A stretch of DNA of 52,522 nucleotides from the NCBI GenBank assembly GCA_001805615.1, contig MHGP01000035.1:10222-62743 (forward strand), given 5' to 3'. This DNA is from Omnitrophica WOR_2 bacterium RIFCSPHIGHO2_02_FULL_48_11 (GTDB lineage Bacteria > Omnitrophota > Gorgyraeia > Zapsychrales > GWA2-47-8). Made by a program: the position numbers and the translations under genes. Shown here piece by piece: positions 3,479 to 27,020 of this stretch. Position 1 is the stretch's first letter. The number at the start of each line of letters is the position of its first letter. The notes below the pieces were generated by a model. The model saw nothing but the letters and a program-made list of their open reading frames with translations. It did not search any database and had not been told where the DNA came from.

Positions 3479-3487
3479 GATGAACGC

Positions 3488-5265: not shown

Positions 5266-5277
5266 CTGTATAAAATT

Positions 5278-7446: not shown

Positions 7447-7967
7447 TGGAAAATTTCCTTTGATTTTTTAAGTTGACCCATAAAAATTTTCACCTCTGCT
7501 GCGTCTTTTTCTTCCGGAGCCCAAGGGGCAAAAATTGTATCTGTCCGGACAAAGGGACCCTGCGTTGCCTCATGAAAAACAATAAAGTCACTGTTGATGA
7601 TTAAGGTGTGATAAACAGGATCATTAATTCTAAAATAAAATTGTTTCCCTGACGCATAATCCCCCATCTCTATCACCTGACGCAATTGACCATTTTCATC
7701 AAACAGCAAGACATCAACGCTGCCTTCAATCAAATGGAAAGACTCACTCTTATGCAAATGTTTGTGCGGTCTCACGTAAGCTTCTTTCGCGTGAATAATC
7801 AGCATTTCATGAATAGCATCTTCCACACTCCTGTGCGAACAAAGCCGGATCCGTTGGCGCGGATTGGCCATGGCCATTTTTTTTAAAGCAGCGATGTCCT
7901 GACGGGAAACATTGGTAATTTCCTCGTTGGTATACAATACTTCTTCATTAAATTTTTTAGTTTGCAT
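7443..7967 (-). CDS. WbuC-family cupin-fold protein
   Basis: 174 aa. The segment RIRLCSHRSVEDAIHEMLIIHAKEAYVRPHKH..SESFHLIEGSVDVLLFDENG matches my recollection of WbuC-type cupins in O-antigen loci. ATGA overlap with the downstream gene. Confidence 0.65.
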   Translation of the reverse strand: MQTKKFNEEVLYTNEEITNVSRQDIAALKKMAMANPRQRIRLCSHRSVEDAIHEMLIIHAKEAYVRPHKHLHKSESFHLIEGSVDVLLFDENGQLRQVIEMGDYASGKQFYFRINDPVYHTLIINSDFIVFHEATQGPFVRTDTIFAPWAPEEKDAAEVKIFMGQLKKSKEIFQ

Positions 7968-9213
7968 ATCCCGCTTCTTTCCGATTGGATCTTAAAATCT
8001 CCAAAGCACATGAACTTCCTCCAAAAATAGAAGTAAATTCGCCGCCTTGTTTAACAAACGACTGATTATTAGCTATCACTTTCTTCTCGCTTAAAGGATT
8101 AAGACTTAGCACACAAAGCTTAATATTGTCGTCGATCAAAACCCGGGATCCTTTGATTTCTAATTTTGATCCCGGCATAAATAATCCATTCTTCTGAGGA
8201 TGATCGTCAATAAAACATTCAATATAACCTTTAAGGCCGAAAATATTCACAAAAGTACAAGCTAAATGACCCGCGCCGAAAAGCGCGATCTTCCCGTTTT
8301 GTTCTTTAAATTCTCTAAAAAAATTTTGTATTTTCTCTTTATAAACTTCTAAATTCTTTGCAAAATTTTTCGCACGTAAAACCTCAGATTGCAAAATTTT
8401 ATCCTGCAAAACTTGCGGTTGAATATTTTCGCTAGGCTGCACAATAGCTATAAGAGAATTTTCAAAGGGATAAGGGTAATTTTTATACCATTTCAAAGAT
8501 AATTGATTGTAGGAAAAGCAATTCTTAAAAGTCGCCGGCGTAAAATAAAGCGTATGCTCTTCCCAGATCGTCGTGTAATCACATATTGCAATGGCCTGCG
8601 TACAATCCGGCACCTCAAAAACAATATAACCGCTTGGTTTGATTAAATCCTTTAAGACTTCCCAAAATTGTAACGGGTCATGGGCATGCTCCAGGATATG
8701 ACGGACGATCAAGACATCTGATTTGCCTCTACGACTAATAATCTTCTTTAAATTGTCCGTCGTCAAATAGGCCTGAATAGTTTCGATGCCAATACCCGTT
8801 TGCGCTATCCCCAGATCTTCTTTGGGATCGATGCGCCAGATATTCTTAAATCCTTTTTTATTGAAACGTTCCAAAGTTGAATCATCTTTGAAACTGACAC
8901 CGCCGATCTTGGCATCATGATTTAAACCGGGCAAGGCGATAATATTCTCCACCAAATCATCCAAGTGTGCCTCTGGCTCGTTATAAGTAATCCAATTAAA
9001 GCGCGGAGCAAGTTCGCTGGCAGGCACAGGGTCGTTGATCTGCACCAAACCCGTAGCCTCACAGATATTGAGCTTCATCGGATACACATATTCATTTTCC
9101 CGCGGATTCTGCAAAAATCTATTACAGATCGGCTGTGGACCAAGGTCCAAAAGCTCAACGACAGGTTCGGTACGGGCAAAATGATCTGTGACTGTTTTTC
9201 TACTAGGCAACAT
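7957..9213 (-). CDS. C-methyltransferase-like class I SAM-dependent methyltransferase paralogue (zinc ribbon apparently degenerate)
   Basis: N-terminal LLDLGPQPICNRF and LNICEATGLVQI resemble the zinc-ribbon region of NDP-hexose C-methyltransferases, but most Cys ligands are missing. VLIVRHILEHAHDP is present. C-terminal segment KIALFGAGHLA..CFIDDHPQKNG. Confidence 0.6.
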   Translation of the reverse strand: MLPSRKTVTDHFARTEPVVELLDLGPQPICNRFLQNPRENEYVYPMKLNICEATGLVQINDPVPASELAPRFNWITYNEPEAHLDDLVENIIALPGLNHDAKIGGVSFKDDSTLERFNKKGFKNIWRIDPKEDLGIAQTGIGIETIQAYLTTDNLKKIISRRGKSDVLIVRHILEHAHDPLQFWEVLKDLIKPSGYIVFEVPDCTQAIAICDYTTIWEEHTLYFTPATFKNCFSYNQLSLKWYKNYPYPFENSLIAIVQPSENIQPQVLQDKILQSEVLRAKNFAKNLEVYKEKIQNFFREFKEQNGKIALFGAGHLACTFVNIFGLKGYIECFIDDHPQKNGLFMPGSKLEIKGSRVLIDDNIKLCVLSLNPLSEKKVIANNQSFVKQGGEFTSIFGGSSCALEILRSNRKEAGYAN

Positions 9214-9688
9214 TATGCAATTCCTTAGAAATTATCTGTTCCTGATCGATGCGTTCATAAGGGCCGGTTATATGATCCCACGAGGATTCTGCCTCATCGC
9301 GCTTGATCACAAATTGCGTCGCATAAAAGATCGGAAAAAGCTCATCCAAACGTTGCTGATTCTCGACGGATATATCCTCCCTGGCAAAATGCACCTCATA
9401 CCCCTCATCAAGAACATATTTTAAAAATTTGTAATCAAAACGTCCACCGTAAAAAAACTGGCGTAAAGTAAAAAAGATAATGCCATCGATGTTCGCTTGT
9501 TTCTCATCCATCTTGGCTTTAATCACGCCATGCGAAGGTAAAGTTTTAAAATCTTCCGCGGTATAAAAAATAATTTTACCGCTCAGCTTTTTGGCTTTCT
9601 CGCCATTTGCCAAATGCTGCAACGATTGCGGCGCATATTTGACAAATCCGGCATCTAAACAGGAATAATAACTTTTCATTTGCTGCAC
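9203..9688 (-). CDS. Hypothetical protein, 161 aa
   Basis: ORF in operon register, overlapping both neighbours by a few nt. No recognisable motif. It might correspond to the small 'sporadic carbohydrate cluster' protein family that accompanies a 2OG oxygenase (unverified recollection). Confidence 0.4.
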   Translation of the reverse strand: MQQMKSYYSCLDAGFVKYAPQSLQHLANGEKAKKLSGKIIFYTAEDFKTLPSHGVIKAKMDEKQANIDGIIFFTLRQFFYGGRFDYKFLKYVLDEGYEVHFAREDISVENQQRLDELFPIFYATQFVIKRDEAESSWDHITGPYERIDQEQIISKELHNVA

Positions 9689-10440
9689 TCCTCCTTTTCA
9701 TGCTCCAGAGCAACTTGCGCTAAAGGTGAAAGGCGTAATATTTGGAAAAATTCTCCTAATCCCTTCGAGCCTACCGGAGAAAATAATCCTTTGTAGCGAA
9801 TGTTAAGCGACCATCGCGTTTCTTCTTCTTGGTTTAATGGGATCCCATGGACTAAGCCCGGCCAGAAAAAGAGTGCTTCCCCAAATTTCATCTCAAGCCG
9901 CGTTCCTTCTTTCTCGGTATATTTCTGAAATTGTTCATAACCTGAATCTAAATCAGATAAAAGCTCCAGTGCCTTGTCTGTTTTTGCTAAATTTAAAACA
10001 TACATTCCTTTTGTGGCATAGATATCCACCAAAGGAACCCAGCCCACCACTTCAAAGGGTGAATTGAGAGGAGAATCTCTATGGACCGGGGACGTATTGG
10101 AATCGCCGGGTTGTTGAATAACAAGATTCGTCCCTTTTTGGACTAAAATGTCCGGCCCGACGAGGTTCGTGAGAAGATCTTCATAGGCTTGATAAATTAA
10201 TTCCCCGGCATTTAAATTCTTCGAAATGTCATTATACAATTCAAAACGGCGGTCATTCAGCTGAGTCCCGGTAAGTTCATAATGGTGGAACTGATTAAAA
10301 AATTGCGTGGCATCTTCTCCATTATAGTCCACCATCTTCTTTGCTTTCTCGAATATTTGATCGCGCAGTTGCTCTAAGACATCGATCCTTTCCGCCGGCG
10401 CAATGATATAACCATTTTTTAAGAAAAATTCTCTGTCCAT
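9676..10440 (-). CDS. 2OG-Fe(II)/phytanoyl-CoA-dioxygenase-like oxygenase
   Basis: Candidate facial triad HxD (PVHRDSP) plus a distal His (GLVHGIP). Size of 254 aa and carbohydrate-cluster context fit. Confidence 0.6.
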   Translation of the reverse strand: MDREFFLKNGYIIAPAERIDVLEQLRDQIFEKAKKMVDYNGEDATQFFNQFHHYELTGTQLNDRRFELYNDISKNLNAGELIYQAYEDLLTNLVGPDILVQKGTNLVIQQPGDSNTSPVHRDSPLNSPFEVVGWVPLVDIYATKGMYVLNLAKTDKALELLSDLDSGYEQFQKYTEKEGTRLEMKFGEALFFWPGLVHGIPLNQEEETRWSLNIRYKGLFSPVGSKGLGEFFQILRLSPLAQVALEHEKEECSK

Positions 10441-10452
10441 GATGATTCCTTT

Positions 10453-11361
10453 CTAAATTGTTTTTTCAGTTAAAGTGGTTTCAGCTAAAAGTGTTTTTCG
10501 TATTCCTTCCGTAAGCGATGTAAATTTAAAATCGCCTATAATTTTAGATAAATTCCCATTGTTAAAAGCATTATCAACTTTGTTCTTGGATCTTTCTTTG
10601 AAACTAACCTTCAATTCTGTGCCAACCGCTTTCGCAACAATGTCTAACACCTGTCTAAACGTATAACTCTGTCCGCTCGCAACATTAACTACGCCGGAAT
10701 GTTTTTTTAACATCAATTGATCGATAAGCTTAACCACATCTTCAACAAACATAAATTCCCGCAGTTCAGAACCATCTCCCCAAAGCGTGATCAGCTCTTT
10801 ATTGATGGCGGCTTTTAAGAATCCTGCCGGGCCGTACGTTTTTCCCTGATCACCCGGGCCATAAATCAACGGCGGGCGAAGAATCAAAAGCGAGCTTTGC
10901 GGTTTTTGCTCAAATATTTTAGTGAACAACCGCTCCGATGTGTATTTCGCCAAACCATAATAAGACCGCGGCTGAATTAATGTTTCTTCAGTAATTTCTG
11001 TATTATGAATGTCCTCGCCATAAACCGCCGCGGAACTAAAAAAAACTAGTCGCTGAACTGGAGCGTTTTCCAAAACACGGCAGAGATTCACGCACATATG
11101 TACATTCTGCAAAAATGTTTCTGCGTTATCACTAAATTGACGTTTAATCGCCGAACACATAATCACGGCTGTTTCTAAATCAAAATTTTTTGCCAGCCGC
11201 TTGGCATCTTCATATTGCGTTAAATCCACTTGCTCAAGCGACTGACCAATGATTTCCAGGCCAGGATGCGTTCGACGGAAATAATTCTCCAAATGCCCGC
11301 CGATAAAACCGGTGTTTCCCAAAATCACTAACCGTCGAAATGTATGGGCTGGCTGCATCAT
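10453..11361 (-). CDS. NAD-dependent epimerase/dehydratase family protein (extended SDR)
   Basis: GNTGFIGGHL Rossmann motif, YGLAK catalytic YxxxK, 302 aa. Confidence 0.8.
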   Translation of the reverse strand: MMQPAHTFRRLVILGNTGFIGGHLENYFRRTHPGLEIIGQSLEQVDLTQYEDAKRLAKNFDLETAVIMCSAIKRQFSDNAETFLQNVHMCVNLCRVLENAPVQRLVFFSSAAVYGEDIHNTEITEETLIQPRSYYGLAKYTSERLFTKIFEQKPQSSLLILRPPLIYGPGDQGKTYGPAGFLKAAINKELITLWGDGSELREFMFVEDVVKLIDQLMLKKHSGVVNVASGQSYTFRQVLDIVAKAVGTELKVSFKERSKNKVDNAFNNGNLSKIIGDFKFTSLTEGIRKTLLAETTLTEKTI

Positions 11362-11366
11362 ATTTT

Positions 11367-12491
11367 TTAACTCTTTTTCATATTAATCAGGATCCGGCCC
11401 GCTTCGCCTTTTCGCAAAATCGCGATCGCCTCGTTGATTTCCTTAAGACTGAATTCATGCGTGATCAATTCGTCCAGTTTCAATTTTCCCGCCCGATAAA
11501 GCCGGATGTAACGCGGGATTTCCAGATGCGGCTGCGCATCGCCGCCGTGCGAACCTTTTAAAATTTTCTTAAAATGCAACGGCAAAGAATAAATCGAGAT
11601 ATTGTCGCCTTTTTTAGGGACTCCAACGAGTATCGTCTTGCCGTCGGGATGGGTCAATTCATAAGCAGTCTCGATCACGCGCGCGTTGCCGGTTGTGTCC
11701 ACGACCACGTCCGCCCCCTGAGCGCCGACCAGCTTCTTGATCTCTGCGAGGTAATCGGGATTCTTTTTAGAATTGAAACAATGCGTAACGCCGAATTTTT
11801 TCGCCATGTCCAATTTGGAATCAAACAGATCAACGCCGATGATCGGATGCGCAGAGGCCATCTGGGCGGATTGCGCGATATTCAAACCCACGCCGCCTAT
11901 CCCAAAGATCACGATCGACTGGCCGATTTTAAGCTGTGCGTTGTTATTGATCACCCCCATCGCGGTCGTGACCGAGCAGCCAAAAAGTGGTGCCAGGCGA
12001 AGATCAAAATCGTTAGGGATCGTCGTCAAACGATTCTCCGAAACGATCGCATAATCATTAAAAGTCGTTACCCATCCGGCATTGACTTTTTTCCCCTGCC
12101 TGCCGGCAGGCAGGACGTTCCAATCATACACCGGTGTTTCCGCTTGCAGACCGTCGCTCGGCTTCCAATGCATGACCACGTGATCGCCTTTCTTCATCCG
12201 CTTCACCCCCGGCCCAACGTCAAGGACGACACCTGAACCTTCGTGCCCTAAAAGGTGAGGCAAAAATTTATCCGGCCCCTTGGCGCCTTCGATCTCATTG
12301 ATCTGCGCGCCGCAAATACCGCTGTAGCGGACCTCGACCAAGACTTGCCCGAAAGACAACACTTTGGGCAAATCCAGCCGCGCCACGACGAGCGGTTTAT
12401 TCAGATCGACGAGGACCGCGGCCTGCATCGTCTTTTGCGCTGCGGCAGAAATTTTACTTTCTAAGATTTCTTGTTTCATAATTTTCCCCAA
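11367..12491 (-). CDS. Zinc-binding medium-chain alcohol dehydrogenase
   Basis: GHEGSGVV zinc-ligand motif and GIGGVGL nucleotide-binding motif. The true start may be an internal Met (MQAAVLVD..). Confidence 0.85.
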   Translation of the reverse strand: MGKIMKQEILESKISAAAQKTMQAAVLVDLNKPLVVARLDLPKVLSFGQVLVEVRYSGICGAQINEIEGAKGPDKFLPHLLGHEGSGVVLDVGPGVKRMKKGDHVVMHWKPSDGLQAETPVYDWNVLPAGRQGKKVNAGWVTTFNDYAIVSENRLTTIPNDFDLRLAPLFGCSVTTAMGVINNNAQLKIGQSIVIFGIGGVGLNIAQSAQMASAHPIIGVDLFDSKLDMAKKFGVTHCFNSKKNPDYLAEIKKLVGAQGADVVVDTTGNARVIETAYELTHPDGKTILVGVPKKGDNISIYSLPLHFKKILKGSHGGDAQPHLEIPRYIRLYRAGKLKLDELITHEFSLKEINEAIAILRKGEAGRILINMKKS

Positions 12492-12497
12492 TGTAAG

Positions 12498-13163
12498 TTA
12501 TTCGAAATAAATAAATTCATAATCGCCGGTATAACCAAAATGCCGGTACAACCAGACCCATTCTTCCTGGTCAAAAAAGGATTCACACGTCAAGGCCCAG
12601 CACTGCAGATTGAAAAGCTCTGCTTCGCTGCGGTAACTTTCGAGCATGACATAACCCTGTTTGCCGACGCGTTCGACTTCCTTTAAAGCTTTTTCCAATT
12701 CAAAGAGCCGCAGGTTATGAAAACATCCCAGGGATATCACCAGATCAAAATATTTATCTTTCCAGGGATAAGGCACGTCCTGCGCCTTGCGGCGGGTTAA
12801 ATGAGACCGTATGCCTTCGGGCGCGTCGGCGAGGCCGTGTTTGGAAATATCAAAACCATGCACCTCGGATTGCGGCAGCAATTGTTTTAATTCATACAAT
12901 AAATGGGCCTTGCCGCAGCCAATATCTAAAATTTTGGCATCCGGTTTTAAATGATACGTTTTGATAATATTTTCGGCAGCGGCTTTCCAGCGGCCGTCAT
13001 ATTTGTAACCGCCATATCCGTACCTTCGATCGCCGTCCCAATAATCAAATTCATATTCCTTGGCCTTCAACATGCAATGAATTTTGTCATCCACCATGCG
13101 GGCCAAATAATCTCTTTTAGTTCTTTTGTGCAACGGTGTCACGATCTCGCGCAGTTGTCCCAT
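12498..13163 (-). CDS. Class I SAM-dependent methyltransferase
   Basis: Motif I ILDIGCGKAHLL, 221 aa. Confidence 0.8.
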   Translation of the reverse strand: MGQLREIVTPLHKRTKRDYLARMVDDKIHCMLKAKEYEFDYWDGDRRYGYGGYKYDGRWKAAAENIIKTYHLKPDAKILDIGCGKAHLLYELKQLLPQSEVHGFDISKHGLADAPEGIRSHLTRRKAQDVPYPWKDKYFDLVISLGCFHNLRLFELEKALKEVERVGKQGYVMLESYRSEAELFNLQCWALTCESFFDQEEWVWLYRHFGYTGDYEFIYFE

Positions 13164-13167
13164 CGAT

Positions 13168-14187
13168 TTACTCCCGCTTTTCTTTTTTTATGGCGAGGCT
13201 CGCCTCGTATTTCGGCGAGGCGGCCTTTACCAATTCTGATTCTGATAGTTTTGCTGGAATTTCGCTATTCACTAAATTCTTCAGAACGTCCACCAGATGA
13301 TCCGTGGTGATCTTAAATTCTTTCATCAAACTCGCCTGTGAACCGTATTTCTTTGGGAATACATCCGGGATACCGATGCGTTTAAATTTTTTACCCGGAT
13401 TGAAATTGGCCTCGGCCAAAATTTCCGCCACCGCCCCGCCTAAACCGCCCAGGATAGTATGTTCTTCGATCGTCACCACCGTGGCAACCCGGTCTGCGGC
13501 TTTTAAAATACTTTCTTTATCCAAGGGTTTTACCGTCGGGACATGCAGAACAGTGATTTCTAACCCTTCCTGCGCCAAACGTTCGGCCGCTTCCAAACCA
13601 TTTTGCAAAGTAATACCGGTCGTGATCACCAACGCATCGCTGCCTTCGCGGTAGAGCAAGGCCTTGCCAATTTTAAAAGGAATATCTTCGCGCGTTACGA
13701 TGGGATCGCCACCCTTCGCAAAACGGATATACATCGGGCCAGGATAATCCAATGTCTGGGCCATCACCCGCCGCATTTCCTCCGCGTCCGCCGGCGCCAC
13801 AATCGTCATGTTGGGGATCGCGCGCAAAATCGCAATATCATCGATCGCTTCATGGGTCGGCCCTAAGGGCGTATAAACCAATCCGCCGCCGCTCGCCAGA
13901 AGCCGCACATTGACATTATGCAAACACAGATCCAGCACAATCTGCTCGAAACAGCGTCGAGTCAAGAAAGTGGCGATCGTGTTGATATAAACGATCTTCC
14001 CCTCCATCGCTAAACCCGCCGCGAGCCCCACGATATTGGCCTCGCTGACGCCTTCCATTAAGAAACGTTCCGGCATTTCATCTTTAAATTTCTGTAAGAC
14101 GCCGACACCCAGATCCGATCCTATAAAAAAGACGCGTTTATCTTTCTTCGCTAATTCATACACCACATCTAAGCTGGCTTGCCGCAT
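13168..14187 (-). CDS. Transketolase, C-terminal (pyrimidine-binding) subunit
   Basis: 339 aa with ..FLMEGVSEANIVGLAAGLA.. and a transketolase C-terminal domain layout. It lies immediately downstream of the N-terminal subunit gene. Confidence 0.9.
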   Translation of the reverse strand: MRQASLDVVYELAKKDKRVFFIGSDLGVGVLQKFKDEMPERFLMEGVSEANIVGLAAGLAMEGKIVYINTIATFLTRRCFEQIVLDLCLHNVNVRLLASGGGLVYTPLGPTHEAIDDIAILRAIPNMTIVAPADAEEMRRVMAQTLDYPGPMYIRFAKGGDPIVTREDIPFKIGKALLYREGSDALVITTGITLQNGLEAAERLAQEGLEITVLHVPTVKPLDKESILKAADRVATVVTIEEHTILGGLGGAVAEILAEANFNPGKKFKRIGIPDVFPKKYGSQASLMKEFKITTDHLVDVLKNLVNSEIPAKLSESELVKAASPKYEASLAIKKEKRE

Positions 14188-14190
14188 AAA

Positions 14191-15018
14191 TTACTCCACC
14201 TGTTCCAAAAGTTTTACGATCTCCTCATCGGAAACCTTGCTCTTGTGATGCCATTTCATATTGTTCTCGCAAAAGCTGATCCCTTTTCCCTTCACCGTAT
14301 GACAAATGATGGCGGTCGGTTTCTGTGAGTCGACCGGTAATGAAGAAAAAAGTTTACGCAAAGCTTCTACATCATGACCATCCACCTCGACCGTGCCAAA
14401 ACCGAAACTGCGCCATTTATCGGCAAAAGGTTCCAGGTCCTGGACTTCGAACGTCGTCGAGTAGGACTGGTGCTTGTTGTAGTCAACGATAACCGTCAGA
14501 TTGCTCAATTTATGTTTTCCGGCGGACAGCGCGGCTTCCCACACGGAACCCTCGTCACACTCACCGTCGCCGACAATCACAAAAACGCGGTGCTTGGCTT
14601 TTTCAATTTTTCCATTAAGCGCAAAACCTAAACCAATCGAAAGCCCGTGCCCCAAACTTCCCGTCGAAGCTTCAACACCCGGCACTTTATGCTCCGGATG
14701 CCCTCCCAAGATTCCGTCAGCCTTACAGAACTTCCACAATTCTGCTTCCGGGAAAAATCCTTTCTCGGCCAAAATAGTGTACAGTGCCAAACAGCCATGA
14801 CCTTTGCTTAAAATACAGCGGTCGCGGTCCTTCCAATGAGGGTTTTTCGCATCATAATGCAAAATATCGTCATAAAGAACGCGTAAAATCTCCACGACGG
14901 AAAACGCCGACCCAACGTGCCCCCGGCGCCCGGCATCTAAAATCTTAATGATCGTCCGGCGAAGCTCTTTGGAACGTTTATCCAACTGGGACTGACTATG
15001 CATGACTGGTTGATTCAT
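14191..15018 (-). CDS. Transketolase, N-terminal (thiamine-diphosphate-binding) subunit
   Basis: SKGHGCLALY, GSLGHGLSIGLG, and the ThDP motif GDGECDEGSVWEA...VIVDYN. Confidence 0.9.
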   Translation of the reverse strand: MNQPVMHSQSQLDKRSKELRRTIIKILDAGRRGHVGSAFSVVEILRVLYDDILHYDAKNPHWKDRDRCILSKGHGCLALYTILAEKGFFPEAELWKFCKADGILGGHPEHKVPGVEASTGSLGHGLSIGLGFALNGKIEKAKHRVFVIVGDGECDEGSVWEAALSAGKHKLSNLTVIVDYNKHQSYSTTFEVQDLEPFADKWRSFGFGTVEVDGHDVEALRKLFSSLPVDSQKPTAIICHTVKGKGISFCENNMKWHHKSKVSDEEIVKLLEQVE

Positions 15019-16069
15019 AATATTCCTTAACTGTCCTTAACATTTTCTGGGCTTTATGCAGTTGCTCTTTCAAAATCTTTTTTCGATCGCCCAACTCCCC
15101 TTGCGCGAATCCCCGGCGGAGCATGTCCTTGGGGACAAACTCATTCAAAAGGATCAACGTCCACTTCATGCTCCACAGCGGATAAAAAAGTTGAACCCGT
15201 TGCGCTAAATTCCGGTATTCGCCGAAGACCTGATAAATTTCTTTCGCAAACTGCTGCTGGGATGCCTCAGACAGGCTCATGCCCGGATGCAACAAGAAAT
15301 CCGAGATCATTTTCACCGGATCATCCCAGCCGAAATATTCGAAATCTAGAAAGACCAGGCTTCCGTCCGGGCGGCGCAAGGCATTGTGAAACCCAAAATC
15401 CGACGGGCTTAACGTCCTTTCACTGGCGCTGCTCTCCTCAGTAAAAGCAATGCCCCACTTCTCCAATTCTTTTTTCGTCTGTTCGATCGCGTGCTGTAAA
15501 AAAGGCAAATACTCGCTTTTAAGAAAATCATGCAGCCATTGGTATTCTTCCCCTTCACCTTGCACGGCCAGCAGCCGGTTAAATCGTTTTTCTAAATTAT
15601 CGAACAAGGCCTGCGCCGAAAAACACGCCTCGGAGGCGGGAGCAAAATCCTGTCCCCGCGCCTTACCGCGCAGATCCTTGAGCGTTGCCAAAAAATTCAC
15701 TGCGACAGTGATGTCTTGAGCGCTTACCGCCGAGGATACGATCTTTTCTCCGTCAATAAATCCATAAATAGCGCATGCATCTTTAACATCCGCCCGGATA
15801 GGCTCGGGGATGCATCTTACGCCGTTATTCCACAAAAATTGCAGACTGTTAAACTCAACGCCCGCGCGGTCACGCTTATCTCCCGGATGCTGAAAATAAA
15901 ATTTGGCAGCATAAAATTTTCCGCCCTGCGTTTCGATGCGGTAAACCCGGCTATTGCGTCCGCCGCCGATAGTTTCCGCCGAAACAACCGCCCGGCCCAA
16001 CAGGGCTGCGGCGATCCTTTTGGCTGCTTCGACCTGTGTTTTATCTTCTTGCCCCAGCGAAATAGTCAT
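14996..16069 (-). CDS. Aminoglycoside-phosphotransferase/choline-kinase-fold kinase
   Basis: Catalytic-loop-like FGFHNALRRPDG followed by FLDFEYFGWDDP (Mg-binding DFE-type motif), 357 aa. Confidence 0.7.
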   Translation of the reverse strand: MTISLGQEDKTQVEAAKRIAAALLGRAVVSAETIGGGRNSRVYRIETQGGKFYAAKFYFQHPGDKRDRAGVEFNSLQFLWNNGVRCIPEPIRADVKDACAIYGFIDGEKIVSSAVSAQDITVAVNFLATLKDLRGKARGQDFAPASEACFSAQALFDNLEKRFNRLLAVQGEGEEYQWLHDFLKSEYLPFLQHAIEQTKKELEKWGIAFTEESSASERTLSPSDFGFHNALRRPDGSLVFLDFEYFGWDDPVKMISDFLLHPGMSLSEASQQQFAKEIYQVFGEYRNLAQRVQLFYPLWSMKWTLILLNEFVPKDMLRRGFAQGELGDRKKILKEQLHKAQKMLRTVKEYYESTSHA

Positions 16070-16667
16070 AAATTTCTTCCCACGTCGATAAAACCCTGAC
16101 GCTTTTCAACGGTTGCCTTTTATCATTCGATGCATACAAAATTTTTTCAACATTATTCGGAAACGAATCTTCTAGAAAAGTTTCTTCCAGATCATCAATA
16201 AAATGCGTACAACCCAGTTGTTTAAGCCGGGCGATCTTTTCTGCCCGGGTCGATTCAAAAAATATCTGTTTCTTAGATAAACCTAATCCTCCTGCTGAGA
16301 AAAAACCATTTGCCCGCATCCAGTTTAAAGCGACATGCCGCAGATCAATTCCCTCACGGTCCATCGACGCAAATTGGGTTTTGTGACTGATAACGCACAC
16401 GTCCCATTTTTCTTTTTTACAAAATTCCACGAACTCTTTCACGCCGTCTATCAACTGGGCTTGATCCATGGCCTTACCATAAATAAAGGCCTGTAATTTC
16501 TGCCACTGAATATCACCGTCAGGCAACCGGCGGATATGGTCACGGATCTCCTTCTTATTCCGCGGCACTTGTCCGTTGATCAATCCCCAGGCCTGTGCCG
16601 TCTTAAGCATCACCGCGTCATAATTGACGATCGTATTATCAAAATCGATCCCGATGACGTGTTTCAT
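16041..16667 (-). CDS. HAD-superfamily hydrolase (putative sugar-phosphate phosphatase)
   Basis: N-terminal DxDxT motif (VIGIDFDNTIV), 208 aa. Confidence 0.75.
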   Translation of the reverse strand: MKHVIGIDFDNTIVNYDAVMLKTAQAWGLINGQVPRNKKEIRDHIRRLPDGDIQWQKLQAFIYGKAMDQAQLIDGVKEFVEFCKKEKWDVCVISHKTQFASMDREGIDLRHVALNWMRANGFFSAGGLGLSKKQIFFESTRAEKIARLKQLGCTHFIDDLEETFLEDSFPNNVEKILYASNDKRQPLKSVRVLSTWEEIYDYFAGARR

Positions 16668-17662
16668 TTTAAATGCACCGTTTTCATCGTGCGGATATTG
16701 TAATAACGGTCATCCGTCATCGAGTTGGGAATTTTATTCGCGTCAAAAGCCTTCTTAAGATCCAAGATCGCCTGTTCAATGGTGTGCCGCGGAGCAAAGT
16801 TCAGCTCCTTCTTGATCTTCTTGGAAGAAACATGATACGACCGGTTGTCATCCGTCGGCACAGTCTTGATCGGGACATGGTCGCCCACGATGGACTGGAC
16901 CATTTTGGCGATATCCTTGACTTTATGGTTCTCGTAACCGGCGTTATAAATTTTTTTGTGAATTTTTTCGTCCGGCAATTCCAGCAAATACACATAAAGG
17001 TCGGTCATGTCTTCGATATGAATATTCGGCCGCGTCTGATCGCCGCCGAAGACCGTGATCTCTTTTTTGTTGATGGCGTGATTGGTCAAAATATTGACCG
17101 TCAAATCTAAGCGCAGGCGCGGCGAATACCCGCACACCGTTGCCGGCCGCAAGATCGAAACGATAAAGTCATCCGTCGCTTCTTCTAAAAGAACATCTTC
17201 ACAAAGCGCTTTATATTTGGAATAATCGGTCAACGGCTCGAGCGAAAGTTCTTCCGTGACATCCGTCGTCTCCTTGATCCCGTAAACGCTCGAACTCGAG
17301 GCGTAAATAAACCGCTTCACCTTGTTTTTCTTGGCAATCTGGACCAACGGCCGAAAGGCATCATAGTTGATCGACTTCCCCAACCCCGGGTCCAGATCAA
17401 AACTGGGGTCATTGGAAATGCAGGCCAAGTGGATCACCGCATCCGTGCCCGGCATGATCTTTTCCAATAATTTCGTATCGCGCAGATCCCCCTTGATCTC
17501 GGTCAAATTGGGATGCCCTTGTACCTCTTTTAAGACAGCATCGCCGTAAAGATAAAGGTCCAACACCTTGACCTTATAACCTTTCTTGATAAGTTTGGGG
17601 ACCAGCACGGCCCCGACATAACCGGCACCGCCGGTGATCAAAATCGTCTGCAGCTTACTCAT
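16664..17662 (-). CDS. NAD-dependent epimerase/dehydratase (extended SDR)
   Basis: ILITGGAGYVG Rossmann motif and YSKYK (YxxxK). I place the start at Met23 of the ORF (MSKLQTIL..), which gives an ATGA overlap with the upstream stop at 17659. Confidence 0.85.
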   Translation of the reverse strand: MSKLQTILITGGAGYVGAVLVPKLIKKGYKVKVLDLYLYGDAVLKEVQGHPNLTEIKGDLRDTKLLEKIMPGTDAVIHLACISNDPSFDLDPGLGKSINYDAFRPLVQIAKKNKVKRFIYASSSSVYGIKETTDVTEELSLEPLTDYSKYKALCEDVLLEEATDDFIVSILRPATVCGYSPRLRLDLTVNILTNHAINKKEITVFGGDQTRPNIHIEDMTDLYVYLLELPDEKIHKKIYNAGYENHKVKDIAKMVQSIVGDHVPIKTVPTDDNRSYHVSSKKIKKELNFAPRHTIEQAILDLKKAFDANKIPNSMTDDRYYNIRTMKTVHLK

Positions 17663-18261
17663 AACGCCTCTACCTTTCGATTGGCTTTTAAGTTTTTTGC
17701 AATAATGACATCGATAAACATGTGACAAATAGCGTGATGGATCACTTCGACGTGACCATATTGCATGCTAGGAACATAAAAATTAATTTCACCTTTCGTC
17801 CTAAGGGGATTATTTTCCCCAAATCCAGAAAGAGTAATAATACGGATTTTCTTTTTCTGAGCAACATCGATCGCTCGTAAAATATTTTCAGACATCCCAG
17901 AACTGCTGATCGCGATTAAAACATCTTTCTCCTCGCCGAACATTTCAAGCGGTTTCTCAAATACATGCTTATAGCCATTGTCGTTGCCAATACAGGTCAA
18001 CGATACACTGTCATTGAAAGCCGTGGCGCGCACGCCGGCATTCTTCCAAAAATCGGTTGCCATATGACTGGCGATCGCGGAGCTCCCACCGTTTCCGATG
18101 AGCATAAGTTTTCCGCCGATATTGGTCTGCGCCAAAATCAAATTAATCGCGGATTCGACTGCCTCATCTAAAGCAGAAAGACCTTCTCCTTTTTTAGTTG
18201 TAACGATATCCTTCAATAAACTTATTAGCAACTGATGATTGTGGTTTATTTCTTCTTTCAT
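17659..18261 (-). CDS. gmhA: SIS-domain sugar-phosphate isomerase, sedoheptulose-7-phosphate isomerase-like
   Basis: LIGNGGSSAIASHMATDF and AISSSGMSENI closely follow GmhA-type SIS motifs. 200 aa. Confidence 0.7.
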   Translation of the reverse strand: MKEEINHNHQLLISLLKDIVTTKKGEGLSALDEAVESAINLILAQTNIGGKLMLIGNGGSSAIASHMATDFWKNAGVRATAFNDSVSLTCIGNDNGYKHVFEKPLEMFGEEKDVLIAISSSGMSENILRAIDVAQKKKIRIITLSGFGENNPLRTKGEINFYVPSMQYGHVEVIHHAICHMFIDVIIAKNLKANRKVEAL

Positions 18262-19790
18262 TTGAGTAACCTCGTTATAAATTTGTTTAGATCCACCAGA
18301 TGAACCGGCTCACGGTTGCAGACGATCTGCACCGCCAATGATCCGACGGCATTGCCGATAAACGAAATAAGATCCTGCGGCAATTTGGCGGCAAAACACG
18401 GAGCTACATAGGCAAAAAAGGCGTCTCCCGCCCCGATCGCATCAACGATCCGATAAGCAAAGGCCGGGGTTTCGTGAAAGCCTTCTTTCTGTGAATAACA
18501 TTGCGAACCATGGAACCCGCGCGTGGCGATAATATGTTCGCAGCCGATCTGCGCATAAACTTTCTTTAAAAGCATGCGCACATCGCTGAACTTGTCATGC
18601 GCCGCGTAGCGCAATTCCATCTCATCGATACACACACAATTGGCACCCGGATATTTTGTGATCAGATTAAAACCGATATTGGCGCTATTGGTCTGAACAT
18701 TGACGGCCAGATATTTGGCCTTTGAACGGACAAAGTTGATGATCTTCTTGGTCATCAACCCGTGACCGAAATCTGAAACAATGACCACATCATAATTCTT
18801 TATTCTTTTCTGCAGCTGCTCGAGGATCTGCGCTTCTTGTTCCGCGGCAATATCATCATCCTTGATGTAACAAATCTCAAATAATTTCCGGCTACCCCAT
18901 TCGCTCACATAACGCCGCTTGACGATCGTCCCGCTGTCGGGCCGATAAACAAAAAAAGGCATGATGTTCGAAGCGAGTTTACCGCGGATAAAATCTTCAC
19001 AGGTGTTCTTTTTTCCCAAAACCGTCAACAGATCCACTTTGCCGCAAACGCTGGCCACATTATTCGCCGTTGCCAAAGTCCCTCCCGCGAACATTTCCTC
19101 GGACGTATAGCGGGTCGCCACCAAATGCTCCTTGGAGGATTTTCCCATCGGAAGACAATAATGATATTCGTCGATGATCGCATCGCCGATCACCAGCGCA
19201 TTCAATTTCTTCAAGCCTTGCAAAGAATTCACGACAGAATCGATCGTATAACGTTTACCCAGCGCCCGCAGGTACTTAAAAGTGCGCGACGGAAAAACAT
19301 CCAGATTATTATTGATCAAACTCGAGGAACTAAAGGTGATGTCATCGGTAAAGGCAATGCGCCCGCCGACCGATTTAACGGCATCCTCTTCTTCATAGAT
19401 CTTGCCGGTGACGTCCTTTTCACGGCTGCGGTATTCGGACCCCTTCGCATAAACGTTAGGCTTTAAAATTTTGATGGCCTCGACCGCCGTCGGAGCATCA
19501 ACGACACTTACGTAATCCGTGACCGCCAAAGACGCCAGCGTTTCGGAACGCAGATCTTCATTAAAGATCGGCCGGCCCGGCCCGCGCTTGACATGTTTAT
19601 CCTTGGTGACAGTGACGACGAGGACATCACCCTCTTTTTTTGCCAAATTAAAATGCCGGATGTGCCCCAAATGCACCAGGTCAAAGACACCGTGGCACTG
19701 GACGACCTTTTTGCCTTTTTTCTTCAAGTCCTCGACGATCTTGGCCAACGCCGGCAACGGCTTAATCTTTATTTTGACGTTATTTTCCAT
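18258..19790 (-). CDS. Bifunctional nucleotidyltransferase (cytidylyltransferase fold) / PfkB-family sugar kinase, HldE-like with inverted domain order
   Basis: N-terminal HxGH motif (FDLVHLGHIRH). C-terminal PfkB signature DAIGAGDAFFAY. The ORF opens at a GTG at 19844, but I prefer the ATG at 19790, which is preceded by AAGGAAA. Confidence 0.8.
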   Translation of the reverse strand: MENNVKIKIKPLPALAKIVEDLKKKGKKVVQCHGVFDLVHLGHIRHFNLAKKEGDVLVVTVTKDKHVKRGPGRPIFNEDLRSETLASLAVTDYVSVVDAPTAVEAIKILKPNVYAKGSEYRSREKDVTGKIYEEEDAVKSVGGRIAFTDDITFSSSSLINNNLDVFPSRTFKYLRALGKRYTIDSVVNSLQGLKKLNALVIGDAIIDEYHYCLPMGKSSKEHLVATRYTSEEMFAGGTLATANNVASVCGKVDLLTVLGKKNTCEDFIRGKLASNIMPFFVYRPDSGTIVKRRYVSEWGSRKLFEICYIKDDDIAAEQEAQILEQLQKRIKNYDVVIVSDFGHGLMTKKIINFVRSKAKYLAVNVQTNSANIGFNLITKYPGANCVCIDEMELRYAAHDKFSDVRMLLKKVYAQIGCEHIIATRGFHGSQCYSQKEGFHETPAFAYRIVDAIGAGDAFFAYVAPCFAAKLPQDLISFIGNAVGSLAVQIVCNREPVHLVDLNKFITRLLK

Positions 19791-19894
19791 CCCAATTTTC
19801 CTTAATACTCCCAATTGATCGTATAGATGAAATTGGGATAGCACTGATTACCTTTATTGTTGTTTTAGAAACATCAGGCATTCCGATTTCCCTT

Positions 19895-20899
19895 TTAATC
19901 CTTTACTAAATATTTGAACCAATCTTCCGTCGCTTTTTCAATTTTCTCCGGGGTCCACACCGGCGCGTCTTTCCAGTAATCGATATACTGCAGCGTCTTT
20001 TCGACACCCTCTTCGAACGACACCTTAGGCTCCCAGCCGATCATTTTTTGAATTTTAGAAATATCCGCCCAGGTGCAATCCGGTTCACCGGGCCGCCTGG
20101 GAATATGGACCTTTTCTCCCCCAAGCAATTCGGCTAAACGGTTAACGCTTTGCGGGTTTCCTGTCCCGACGTTAAAAATTTCACCCTGCACGTCCGAATG
20201 AGCGGCAGCGATGAACGCGTCCACCACATCCGAGACATAGGTAAAATCACGCTTTTGATTTCCGTCACCGACGACCGTGTACGGTTTTCCGGCGAGTTTT
20301 TGCGCCAGAAATACGCCGAAAACCGCTCCGTAGGTTCCGGTCGTACGAGCCCGCGGACCATAGACATTAAATAAACGCAAAGACACAACCGGCAATTTAT
20401 AAACTTGTCCCCAATGCAAGGCAGTCTGCTCCCCGATATATTTGGTGAAGGCATAGGGATATTGCGGACTTATGGGAGTTGTTTCCGGGGAAGGAAAGTA
20501 TCCTTTCGGAGGAATACCGTAGCAAGAAGTCGATGCGGTATATAAAAATCTTTTTACACCCGACAAGCGCGCGGCCTCCACCACCGTCATGGTGCCCTGC
20601 ACGTTCGACCAGAAATATCCCTGCGGATTGACGATCGAAGGAACAATGTCCGCCAAGGCCGCCATGTGGAAGACCATCTCCTGATTTTTAAAATGCGGGA
20701 TGATCTTTTCAAAGTTCGCCACATCCGTCTCGACCACTTTAAGATTGGAATTCCCTTTGTGCTGAGCGAGATTGGCCGGCTTGCTCGTTGAAAAATTATC
20801 CAGGACAGTGACTTGATGTCCATCCGCGATCAGGCGATCCACCAAATGACTGCCGATAAAGCCCGCTCCCCCCGTCACTAAAACTTTCTTGCTTCCCAT
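19895..20899 (-). CDS. NDP-sugar dehydratase/decarboxylase-type extended SDR (UDP-glucuronate decarboxylase / 4,6-dehydratase-like)
   Basis: VLVTGGAGFIGSHLVDRL, YAFTK (YxxxK), 334 aa. Confidence 0.8.
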   Translation of the reverse strand: MGSKKVLVTGGAGFIGSHLVDRLIADGHQVTVLDNFSTSKPANLAQHKGNSNLKVVETDVANFEKIIPHFKNQEMVFHMAALADIVPSIVNPQGYFWSNVQGTMTVVEAARLSGVKRFLYTASTSCYGIPPKGYFPSPETTPISPQYPYAFTKYIGEQTALHWGQVYKLPVVSLRLFNVYGPRARTTGTYGAVFGVFLAQKLAGKPYTVVGDGNQKRDFTYVSDVVDAFIAAAHSDVQGEIFNVGTGNPQSVNRLAELLGGEKVHIPRRPGEPDCTWADISKIQKMIGWEPKVSFEEGVEKTLQYIDYWKDAPVWTPEKIEKATEDWFKYLVKD

Positions 20900-25652: not shown

Positions 25653-27020
25653 TCACTGGCCAGTGTTTTGTTCCAAATAATTACCCACACGGGCACTGGT
25701 CTTACCTCTCTCACTTATGGCGTATTGTTTTAGGGACGGCTCCGCCACAACTTCTACCAATTGCGCCCTGCGTAATTTTTCAGCGATAAGGGACAGCTCC
25801 TGGACCGGCACATTGATCTTCTCGCTGATGTCGATTAAATCAAGTTTCCCGTCCGCGTAGGCAATAAAATCCATCATGTTCCTGACTTGCTCAGCCGACC
25901 CCTTGGCGCTGATTGTCGGATAGAGGCCTCTTTTCCCCAGCTGCGGCTCACCCAAACACGTCATTTTATATTTTTTATTTTTTTCCAATGCCTCGATACA
26001 CTCTTGCAGCACTGCAAATGATCCGGCCAATCCTTCCGCCGAAATAAGTTTTAAATTATCCAAGGACGTATGATATTCGGGATACGTTCCATATTTGCTG
26101 CGCATAATGGAAGCCACCGGCAGGTCAGCTCCGACGGAACAATACTGCCGTTCATCGCTGCCGCGATTCAAAAATGAATACTTAATAAAATCTGGGTGTC
26201 TCAATTTCAACACATTCAGCGCGACCTTGTCCGCCAATGTGTTCCCTAGCCGGGAAGGAAGATACGAATAACAACGCTCATCGCCGACGCAGGTCACATT
26301 AAAACCGGCAATGATGTTTTGTTTCATGTGTTGCAAATTTTTGCTCAGATAAGTGACCGAGCCGATCGTTTCCGGAATAAAAACAATCCGATAGGTATAT
26401 TCCCGCGGTTCACTTAAAAGCCATTTGGCCAGAAACGTGGTGACCACCGGGCCGGAAAGTTCATTATTGGCCATAGAAGGATGGCAAACGTAAGTGGAAA
26501 GAAAAATCTCCTTTTGTGATTGGCCCGGGATGATCAATTCACCATAGGTGAGCGAGCCATCCTTGAGTTCGGAATCGATCACGACTTTATACTTCCCCTT
26601 TTTCAGCTTCTGCCGATCCTTATGCGCCAGGCAAAATCCCCACCGCTCTGCATAATAAGAAGTGACATACGGTATGGCATTGGGTAATTTCTTATCCGAA
26701 TAAAGATGCTCTTGGAGCTCAGCCAGCGTAACGGTTTTATTGACCGGGGTCGCATAACCAACGACGTGGAGGTTATTCTTCTTAAAATCAATGACCTTCT
26801 TTCCCTTGGCATCACTGACATAGGCGTCCTGGATATTCCATTCTTTGGGAACCGTCCAATCAAACACCGGCGTTCCCGACGGGACTTCCTGCACGGTTAA
26901 AGGAATGTGCTCTTGCAATATTTTCAGGGTCGCCCGGACACCGTTTCCCGTAATGCTGCGGCATATCGGGAGCAACCGCTCCGCCAATTTGTACATGGCT
27001 TTTCCTGTCATAGTGTTCAT
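25653..27020 (-). CDS. Aminopeptidase-like (M28-fold, DUF4910-type) polysaccharide-locus protein with C-terminal winged-helix segment
   Basis: 455 aa. The layout and segments such as YRIVFIPETIGS match my recollection of the COG4310-type family that accompanies AAC(3)-like genes in glycan loci. Unverified without an HMM search. Confidence 0.55.
   Translation of the reverse strand: MNTMTGKAMYKLAERLLPICRSITGNGVRATLKILQEHIPLTVQEVPSGTPVFDWTVPKEWNIQDAYVSDAKGKKVIDFKKNNLHVVGYATPVNKTVTLAELQEHLYSDKKLPNAIPYVTSYYAERWGFCLAHKDRQKLKKGKYKVVIDSELKDGSLTYGELIIPGQSQKEIFLSTYVCHPSMANNELSGPVVTTFLAKWLLSEPREYTYRIVFIPETIGSVTYLSKNLQHMKQNIIAGFNVTCVGDERCYSYLPSRLGNTLADKVALNVLKLRHPDFIKYSFLNRGSDERQYCSVGADLPVASIMRSKYGTYPEYHTSLDNLKLISAEGLAGSFAVLQECIEALEKNKKYKMTCLGEPQLGKRGLYPTISAKGSAEQVRNMMDFIAYADGKLDLIDISEKINVPVQELSLIAEKLRRAQLVEVVAEPSLKQYAISERGKTSARVGNYLEQNTGQ

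Follow-up and report, generated by a model that had tools for sequence, protein, structure and literature searches.

The 52-kb stretch analyzed here (52,522 nucleotides of contig MHGP01000035.1, positions 10,222 to 62,743, from Omnitrophica WOR_2 bacterium RIFCSPHIGHO2_02_FULL_48_11; hereafter the window) is one long glycan locus on the minus strand, in which a split transketolase (TK) is embedded in a block of genes related to those of nucleoside diphosphate (NDP)-heptose synthesis. We tentatively read this block as a conserved, horizontally spread cassette for a nucleotide-activated, heavily tailored, heptose-type sugar of surface glycans, in which the TK would branch a keto-sugar; we place this reading somewhat short of an even chance. 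It was drawn from gene content, gene order, conservation across loci, active-site substitutions and gene fusions, all of which were directly observed.

Seven consecutive genes (13168-19790) had been singled out in an earlier note on this DNA as a module for a higher-carbon sugar nucleotide, namely an HldE-like nucleotidyltransferase/kinase, a GmhA-like SIS isomerase, a short-chain dehydrogenase/reductase (SDR), a HAD phosphatase, an APH-fold kinase and the N- and C-subunits of the transketolase (TK-N and TK-C). All seven open reading frames (ORFs) lie on the minus strand where the note had placed them, and their domains were confirmed by Pfam/NCBIfam, except for the HAD, which was recognized by its motifs and model (Table 1). 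The genes are real and co-conserved, but the conserved unit is larger than the seven, running from approximately 11367 to 20899 and adding a class I S-adenosylmethionine (SAM) methyltransferase, a Zn-dependent alcohol dehydrogenase (Zn-ADH) and a second SDR (19895-20899). Neighboring module genes overlap or abut by 3-29 nt in an operon-like manner (29 nt between HAD and APH, 23 nt between APH and TK-N). The ORF at 18258-19790 extends to a GTG at 19844, although homologues of 510-515 aa favor the ATG at 19790. A scan that covered 47 window ORFs of 150 aa or more revealed neither a second transketolase-domain ORF nor a transaldolase domain, and no GmhB gene was found in the window.

Gene order, spread and fusions of the cassette

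With TK-N as the query, 185,579 species genomes were scanned; from 576 confirmed candidates, 80 loci with 48-93% identity were obtained, spanning more than 20 bacterial and archaeal phyla. The hosts include Planctomycetota, Verrucomicrobiota, Omnitrophota, Acidobacteriota, Actinomycetota, several proteobacterial classes, Desulfobacterota, Nitrospirota, Elusimicrobiota, Margulisbacteria, bacteria of the candidate phyla radiation, and Bathy-, Nano- and Woesearchaeota. The cassette TK is patchy across phyla at 58-74% identity; its closest public relative belongs to a Planctomycetales metagenome-assembled genome (MAG), with a TK-N that is 93% identical, and DNA near-identical to the window occurs in groundwater and soil metagenomes.

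When the loci were analyzed by tblastn and de novo ORF clustering, dozens of them, bacterial and archaeal, displayed a recurring order: SDR, nucleotidyltransferase-PfkB kinase (NT-PfkB), SIS, SDR of the 16664 type, HAD, APH, TK-N, TK-C, methyltransferase and Zn-ADH. Loci seeded with the APH kinase behaved alike, four of four showing the same order with APH adjoining TK, one of them in the cyanobacterium Kamptonema (Oscillatoria) PCC 6506. Since the same order is found in dozens of loci from many phyla, with either TK-N or APH as the seed, the arrangement is far beyond chance. The presence of each gene was counted in the 30 loci of the window's clade having at least 8 kb on each side (complete-flank loci; Table 1), and the tightest core comprises TK, HAD, APH and the methyltransferase, the latter located directly after TK-C with orthologues 48-78% identical, and followed by Zn-ADH where this gene is present.

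Natural fusions were also detected. TK-C is fused with Zn-ADH in one protein (P0311, 658 aa) and with a class I methyltransferase in another (P0344, 654 aa), while HAD and APH form a single ORF, HAD first, in 18 of approximately 50 loci. These arrangements indicate that the reductase and the methyltransferase would act on the transketolase substrate or product, and that kinase and phosphatase would act as one unit; this HAD-APH unit is specific to the heptose-type clade. An apparent TK-N/TK-C fusion in another locus (L033) was discarded, as the two parts lie in different reading frames.

In Solidesulfovibrio carbinolicus the cassette is carried by the 133-kb plasmid pDCAR1 (locus L085, 85530-114513), inside a pseudaminic-acid locus, and a second TK pair lies near it together with a methyltransferase and an ATP-grasp enzyme. 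A proteobacterial MAG (L042, 16321-17094) holds a minimal HAD-APH-TK set beside a MotB/OmpA-type gene and a KdsB/NeuA-type cytidylyltransferase, a context which hints that some versions of the cassette belong to flagellar glycosylation islands. No publication describing the cassette was found in the literature on transketolase with heptose, O-antigen, glycosylation islands or branched-chain sugars. A lead towards Coxiella (a Coxiellaceae locus was among the matches; virenose and dihydrohydroxystreptose are branched sugars) was dropped, no mention of a transketolase having been found among the Coxiella lipopolysaccharide papers listed.

The active site of the split transketolase

The best solved match of both subunits is the split transketolase of Carboxydothermus hydrogenoformans (PDB 6YAK/6YAJ), the N subunit being 46% and the C subunit 35% identical; that enzyme has been characterized and is active (PMC7661550). 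The two have in common the alpha2-beta2 split architecture and the cofactor-binding residues. TK-N retains H26, H66, H100, H261 and the GDG...N motif, and TK-C retains R358, E411 and H473; the thiamine diphosphate (ThDP)/metal motif and catalytic residues of canonical transketolases are conserved in all related loci as they are in the window. The aldose-phosphate acceptor site differs: R358 is kept, but S385, H461, D469, R91 and R520 are changed. The full set of substitutions is R91C, Q118H, K244H and G262H in TK-N, and S385G, H461G, L466Y, E468P, D469L and R520K in TK-C, whereas the C. hydrogenoformans enzyme keeps R91, Q118, K244, G262, S385, H461, D469 and R520, all eight of which are changed in the window.

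These replacements are widespread in the related loci, H461G being found in 80 out of 80 and D469L missing from just two; Gly usually takes the place of S385 and Lys that of R520, and position 91 is Cys in 71 of 83 sequences. Among the canonical enzymes compared, E. coli TktA and the C. hydrogenoformans enzyme retain R91, H461 and D469, and human TKT, compared over the N subunit only, retains R91. According to engineering work, S385, D469 and R520 set the acceptor specificity of E. coli transketolase, in which D469 pairs with R91 (PMC5073344).

A search with window positions 13168-14187 against 1.84 billion representatives at 50% identity gave 2088 relatives at E <= 1e-30. Among the 147 alignable sequences of the best 150 of these, G461 with Y/F466 occurs in 109 (77 of them also with L469) and the canonical residues in only seven, the first at about rank 65; the window TK therefore belongs to a large, diverse, non-canonical clade, whose variant motif is carried by more than 100 distinct 50%-identity clusters. 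As a sequence rule, loss of R91 together with Q118H, K244H, G461, Y466 and usually L469 distinguishes such enzymes from housekeeping TK. A distant subclade (L067-L080, approximately 50% identity) displays the same G461/L469 motif without HAD or APH; its neighbors are an NDP-sugar pyrophosphorylase, a PglF-type 4,6-dehydratase, DegT proteins and TylF-like methyltransferases, inside an ordinary Wzy-type polysaccharide locus.

The derived residues of the cassette TK have a counterpart in AptAB; aptA and aptB of E. coli SE15 are the transketolase genes of D-apiose degradation (PMC13001218, 2026). AptAB is also a split TK, and shares with the window's clade the loss of R91, Q118H, K244H, G262H, the loss of H461, L466Y and D469L; moreover, Q118H and K244H are the only N-subunit columns at which three canonical transketolases agree and the clade differs, and AptA has both. 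Overall identity is just 39% to AptA and 35% to AptB, similar to that with the canonical split TK, and the resemblance is therefore concentrated in the shared positions. The window TK thus carries the AptAB-type residue set, but neither a close relationship to AptAB nor an apiose-catabolic context was found: AptAB is catabolic and lies beside an FGGY kinase, a transporter and a regulator, whereas the window TK lies in a glycan biosynthesis operon. AptAB, the apulose-4-phosphate transketolase (EC 2.2.1.13), reportedly interconverts apulose 4-phosphate and glyceraldehyde 3-phosphate with xylulose 5-phosphate and dihydroxyacetone phosphate (Carter et al. 2018), so that its acceptor would be a ketone and its donor a sugar with a quaternary C3.

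Judged by these residues, the cassette TK is a pathway enzyme rather than a housekeeping one, and the suggestion of a dedicated transketolase in the earlier note held up: R91, S385, H461 and D469 are replaced, the plasmid copy lies beside a second TK pair, and the cassette occurs in a cyanobacterium. An ordinary TK that raises the supply of sedoheptulose 7-phosphate, the first of two roles put forward in the earlier note, or the organism's own housekeeping TK, is thus very improbable, even though the ThDP motif, E411 and the catalytic histidines are preserved, an active split TK is the nearest enzyme of solved structure and the adjoining heptose-type genes need sedoheptulose 7-phosphate. Residues conserved in the canonical enzymes compared (R91, S385, H461 and D469) are replaced throughout the clade, which has a patchy phylum distribution at 58-74% identity and more than 100 distinct clusters with the variant motif; a cyanobacterium needs a canonical TK for the Calvin cycle, and E. 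coli has the similar AptAB alongside TktA and TktB. Simple supply of sedoheptulose 7-phosphate is unlikely because the canonical acceptor-site residues are lost, although synthesis of a non-canonical ketose phosphate is kept as a rival (see below).

The second role, transfer of a two-carbon ketol unit onto a keto-sugar, fits better because the acceptor residues are lost, the active site is AptAB-like, an SDR resembling PDB 6VO6 adjoins the TK and the distant subclade is found in 4-keto-6-deoxy-sugar clusters; this chemistry is nevertheless a proposal. H100 is retained, and a hydroxylated two-carbon unit (dihydroxyethyl/glycolaldehyde) would therefore be likelier than acetyl.

Sugar nucleotide genes and a candidate pathway

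The NDP-heptose logic attributed to the module is supported, as a GmhA-like isomerase, an HldE-related kinase/nucleotidyltransferase and, in related loci, GmhB are present; on the other hand, all heptose-pathway matches of the window proteins fall far under the NCBIfam equivalog cut-offs and the HAD is not GmhB-like. In NT-PfkB the nucleotidyltransferase precedes the kinase, the reverse of the order in E. coli HldE, to which the two domains have 36% and 21% identity, respectively. Scores of 100 bits for rfaE_dom_II and 122 bits for rfaE_dom_I are each under cut-off, and the HldE equivalog model gave 157 bits for a cut-off of 521; the protein is clearly related to HldE, yet divergent and permuted. 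Both activities are plausible because the HxGH and GAGD motifs are intact.

The SIS protein scored 97-100 bits with the GmhA models (cut-offs 209-276). It retains the metal/catalytic residues H61 and H180 of GmhA and the phosphate-binding S119, S121 and S124, with substitutions E65D, Q172E and R69N; the first two are present in every cassette locus compared, position 69 is variable and never Arg, and the canonical GmhA pattern was seen in one locus of the distant TK group. The SDR that opens the block (19895-20899) matched best LegB (172 bits) and GalE (166 bits), all under cut-off. As a side observation, ten related loci (L010, L011, L028, L030, L031, L040, L044-L046 and L052) contain between NT-PfkB and SIS a GSU2086-family protein (NF052581, ~335 aa), distantly similar to ornithine cyclodeaminase/deoxyhypusine-synthase-like folds; it is absent from the window and seems an optional cassette member.

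The keto-sugar is probably supplied by the SDR at 16664-17662, which we take for an NDP-heptose dehydrogenase on the basis of its closest relatives. Its best PDB match is 6VO6/6VO8 (E 8e-41, ~40% identity), which beats any other solved protein by sixteen orders of magnitude (the next at 3e-25). These entries are presumably C. jejuni Cj1427, a C4-dehydrogenase of GDP-D-glycero-alpha-D-manno-heptose. The window SDR has YxxxK and the motif SSSSVYG without the Asp-Glu pair of 4,6-dehydratases, and its orthologues (53-71% identity) are located directly upstream of HAD-APH-TK. Typical NDP-4-keto-sugar tailoring genes follow the cassette, encoding TylC3-type C-methyltransferases, WbuC/DUF6016 cupins and RmlD-like reductases, as do DegT aminotransferases in loci other than the window.

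The HAD protein (16041-16667) gave no Pfam match, although its motifs D8xD10xT12, S94, K144 and D158D159 are invariant across 36 homologues. Its AlphaFold2 model (pLDDT 93.7) is a HAD fold with a helical C1 cap, closest to 5'(3')-deoxyribonucleotidases (TM-score ~0.7); the family has 2033 homologues, and the 120 matches listed lack a Pfam domain and are named "hypothetical" at most. GmhB, by comparison, is a capless C0 HAD with Pfam Hydrolase_like/PNK3P. True GmhB genes accompany the cassette in seven related loci, Kamptonema among them, and the HAD is therefore not merely a GmhB substitute; on this ground a stand-in function was rejected, and the canonical heptose phosphatase implied in the earlier note does not agree with a HAD unlike GmhB. 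The APH kinase has a larger and likewise poorly named family (more than 6900 homologues at 90% clustering; few of the 120 listed are named, with generic names only). Its catalytic K56, D224, N229 and D242 are invariant, and its model (pLDDT 90) is closest to LicA choline kinase, APH(9) and ethanolamine kinase. PDB sequence searches with the APH kinase and the HAD gave nothing meaningful. A methylthioribose-type salvage pair (MtnK/MtnX), brought up by the APH fold and a weak MtnX-like match of the HAD, was rejected since fold searches rank MtnK and MtnX far down, and so was the name thiamine kinase, a generic COG label, since a phosphatase-kinase pair acting on thiamine would be futile. The second kinase, which the earlier note had found unexplained, can now be placed, in part, as half of the conserved HAD-APH unit.

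The route that we propose would begin with the GmhA-like isomerase and the kinase/nucleotidyltransferase, which by homology would make an NDP-heptose or a close analogue, GmhB being encoded in the locus or elsewhere. The SDR at 16664-17662 would then oxidize the sugar to a keto-sugar, as its closest solved relative suggests, and the split TK, given its AptAB-like active site, would draw a glycolaldehyde unit from hydroxypyruvate or a common ketose phosphate and attach it to the ketone, yielding a quaternary carbon that bears a C-glycolyl (two-carbon ketol) branch. Gene order and fusions point to reduction of the side-chain ketone by Zn-ADH, its probable ketoreductase, followed by methylation by the methyltransferase; in other loci a DegT aminotransferase might transaminate this ketone instead. 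The weakest step is that of HAD-APH, which would most likely add and later remove a transient phosphate near the reacting ketone, so that the acceptor would resemble dihydroxyacetone phosphate (DHAP), or, equally simply, may shift a phosphate between two sugar positions. The boldest form of this proposal, namely that the cassette makes the first transketolase-family C-C bond on a nucleotide-activated keto-heptose to give a branched nine-carbon sugar, with the fused phosphatase-kinase as a handle and the variant clade as a toolkit for two-carbon branching, is possible but rather unlikely.

Several points weigh against keto-sugar branching. The resemblance to AptAB could stem from shared ancestry rather than shared chemistry. 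R358 and R520, which form the distal phosphate site in canonical transketolases, are lacking in AptB, whereas the window's clade has R358 and K/R520. A phosphatase-kinase pair is unneeded in plain NDP-keto-sugar branching, and its tight coupling to TK (26/30) could mean that the substrates are sugar phosphates. A few loci (L024 and L042) hold HAD-APH-TK without SDR or NT-PfkB within 10 kb, and the variant SIS keeps all its phosphate-binding serines, as would fit a new ketose phosphate coming from the TK.

Most of these points bear on a modified form of the supply role, in which the TK would act early on sugar phosphates to make a non-canonical ketose phosphate (an octulose, a deoxy-ketose or a 3-C-branched sugar, the latter by adding the ketol to DHAP, ribulose 5-phosphate or fructose 6-phosphate). 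The variant isomerase would turn this product into an aldose phosphate, APH with HAD or PfkB with GmhB would move the phosphate to the anomeric position, and the nucleotidyltransferase would activate it. We hold this scheme to be possible, at clearly less than an even chance. Kinase/phosphatase pairs do likewise in the HldE/GmhB, HddA/GmhB and LmbP/LmbK pathways; fusion of HAD with APH suggests that the two act in succession on a single substrate, and HAD-APH-TK is the tightest core and occurs without SDR or NT-PfkB. The retention of R358 and K/R520 in the TK clade, the substrates of AptAB, presumably sugar phosphates themselves, and the E65D and Q172E changes, which the SIS shows in every cassette locus and which would be in line with another ketose phosphate as substrate, speak for it as well. 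However, the window has two kinases for just one nucleotidyltransferase; the distant TK subclade is found in pure NDP-keto-sugar clusters without isomerase, kinase or phosphatase; SIS is present in 15 of the 30 complete loci, compared to 20 for the 16664-type SDR; and TK-C is fused to tailoring enzymes (Zn-ADH and methyltransferase), not to isomerase or kinase.

A further scheme, which we consider improbable, would have the cassette make a small phosphorylated or cytidine diphosphate (CDP)-activated substituent, such as a methylated polyol or hydroxy-acid phosphate derived from a two-carbon ketol, with the heptose itself unmodified; the substituent would be attached to the glycan, e.g. to nonulosonic acids made elsewhere in the locus. 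The kinase is nearest in fold to choline and ethanolamine kinases, the nucleotidyltransferase domain shares its family with the TagD, ECT and CCT cytidylyltransferases, and Zn-ADH with a cytidylyltransferase follows the logic of CDP-ribitol synthesis; besides, pseudaminic/legionaminic-type genes lie near the cassette in the window and on the S. carbinolicus plasmid, and the KdsB/NeuA-type cytidylyltransferase adjoins TK in L042. Nevertheless, the nucleotidyltransferase domain has its highest score with HldE domain II and its fusion partner is a kinase of the HldE type; genes for the GmhA-like isomerase and for GmhB occur along with it, and a fused phosphatase-kinase would be futile for a simple phospho-alcohol. 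NeuB was found within 10 kb in none of the 30 complete loci, a count on which a general link of the cassette with nonulosonic-acid genes was also rejected.

Returning to keto-sugar branching, the module would by analogy work like a hybrid of NDP-heptose synthesis/tailoring and ThDP-dependent sugar branching. It resembles the ADP- and GDP-heptose pathways (GmhA, HldE or HldA/HldC, GmhB, HldD; Cj1427, Cj1430 and Cj1428 of the C. jejuni capsule) in SIS, PfkB with nucleotidyltransferase, the GmhB of sister loci, the 6VO6-like SDR and the downstream cupin and reductase genes, and differs from them by the reversed kinase/nucleotidyltransferase order, the E65D and Q172E isomerase and the lack of a window GmhB. 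We know of no described heptose pathway with a transketolase, an APH-fold kinase, the window HAD family, or a methyltransferase and a Zn-ADH of the window type. YerE of yersiniose A synthesis is similar in the proposed chemistry, a ThDP-bound two-carbon carbanion being added onto the ketone of a nucleotide keto-sugar, with subsequent ketoreduction. The E1-like pairs of avilamycin/aldgamycin sugar branching are related cases. YerE is a ThDP/flavin adenine dinucleotide protein of the acetolactate-synthase family, and what it transfers is an acetyl equivalent derived from pyruvate; the window TK, in contrast, is a transketolase-family heterotetramer that keeps H100 and has no sequence relationship to YerE. 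Lincosamide octose synthesis, which underlies the sugar-phosphate scheme, uses LmbR transaldolase, LmbN isomerase, LmbP kinase, LmbK phosphatase and LmbO nucleotidyltransferase, and shares with the window the logic of C-C transferase, isomerase, kinase, phosphatase and nucleotidyltransferase, but the window lacks the transaldolase, has other kinase and phosphatase families and adds SDR, methyltransferase and Zn-ADH genes.

Branched and higher-carbon sugars occur rarely and are distinctive as antigens, and to our knowledge few enzymes make their C-C bonds: YerE-type ThDP enzymes, radical SAM enzymes and the transaldolases that serve in lincosamide and apramycin synthesis. The split-TK clade described here is large and unstudied, is found in glycan loci of many phyla and has cultivable hosts in Kamptonema and Solidesulfovibrio, with S. 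carbinolicus, a cultured sulfate reducer, as a tractable host for genetics. Its partners form a defined set, namely the probable keto-forming SDR, the phosphatase-kinase unit, the methyltransferase and the probable ketoreductase. Keto-sugar branching by this clade, if true, would represent a new enzymatic route to branched sugars, would give an annotation to thousands of genes now named "hypothetical", "phosphotransferase" or "transketolase", and would provide new ketone-accepting biocatalysts, ketones being handled poorly by engineered transketolases.

Tailoring genes and the remainder of the window

Homologues of the genes located at 2231-11361 (minus strand) recur downstream of the cassette in related loci; these are downstream tailoring and transfer genes, often travelling with the cassette (Table 1).

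Table 1. Genes of the conserved block and of the downstream tailoring region, with presence of the former in the 30 complete-flank loci.
Gene product	Positions	Strand	Basis	Loci with the gene
Extended SDR, LegB/GalE/dTDP-glucose dehydratase-like; opens the conserved block	19895-20899	-	Pfam Epimerase, GDP_Man_Dehyd	13/30 (orthologue of at least 50% identity)
Bifunctional nucleotidyltransferase and PfkB sugar kinase (NT-PfkB)	18258-19790	-	Pfam CTP_transf_like 33-157, PfkB 198-488	20/30
GmhA-like SIS ketose/aldose phosphate isomerase, variant subfamily	17659-18261	-	Pfam SIS_2	15/30
Extended SDR, probable NDP-heptose dehydrogenase	16664-17662	-	Best PDB match 6VO6/6VO8	20/30
C1-capped HAD phosphatase, unannotated family	16041-16667	-	Four HAD motifs, HAD-fold model; no Pfam match	26/30
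APH/choline-kinase-fold small-molecule kinase	14996-16069	-	Pfam APH	26/30
Split transketolase ThDP/PP-domain subunit (TK-N), AptA-like variant	14191-15018	-	Pfam Transketolase_N	
Split transketolase Pyr and C-terminal subunit (TK-C), AptB-like variant	13168-14187	-	Transket_pyr, Transketolase_C	
Class I SAM methyltransferase, core cassette member	12498-13163	-	Pfam Methyltransf_31/25/11	26/30
Zn-dependent medium-chain dehydrogenase, class III ADH-like (Zn-ADH)	11367-12491	-	Pfam ADH_N, ADH_zinc_N	14/30
SDR reductase	10453-11361	-	Pfam	
2-Oxoglutarate (2OG)-Fe(II) oxygenase	9676-10440	-	NCBIfam TIGR04324, above cut-off	
Protein without assigned name	9203-9688	-		
C-methyltransferase	7957-9213	-	Pfam	
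WbuC cupin	7443-7967	-	NCBIfam TIGR04366, above cut-off	
RmlD and C-methyltransferase	5278-7446	-	722-aa single ORF	
Radical SAM/SPASM	4252-5265	-	Pfam	
Short-chain SDR	3488-4255	-	Pfam	
TIGR04372 glycosyltransferase	2231-3478	-	NCBIfam, above cut-off	

Three of these products belong to families (TIGR04324, TIGR04366 and TIGR04372) which are defined solely by their occurrence in sporadically distributed carbohydrate clusters, and homologues of the three accompany the TK cassette on the S. carbinolicus plasmid as well as in several further phyla. The ORF at 5278-7446 encodes an RmlD-type NDP-4-keto-sugar reductase and, in the same chain, a complete sugar C-methyltransferase (Methyltransf_13/23/14); it is unusual for two steps of deoxysugar tailoring to be fused in this way.

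The remaining genes of the window include several aminotransferases, radical SAM and B12-radical SAM enzymes, family 2 glycosyltransferases (GT2) and a YfhO-like membrane protein. Nonulosonic-acid genes of the NeuB type form two separate modules (NeuB at 33121-34245 and 45888-46937), with CMP-transferases (35623-36360 and 47510-48295), a PseB-like dehydratase (39272-40255), DegT aminotransferases, a PglD-like acetyltransferase (44094-44738) and a NeuC-like 2-epimerase (44743-45906); an AMP-ligase (31594-33105) and a GNAT protein adjoin these genes. The locus seems to produce two distinct nonulosonic acids, which are probably acylated. The genes of a DegT-family aminotransferase (48148-49344) and of an iron-containing alcohol dehydrogenase (49331-50614) overlap, and this pair of oxidase and transaminase could convert a primary or secondary alcohol into an amino sugar. 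Finally, translational coupling links a DUF4910/DUF2172 protein that has a winged-helix domain (25653-27020) to a protein similar to aminoglycoside 3-N-acetyltransferases (27017-27889), midway in the glycan locus.

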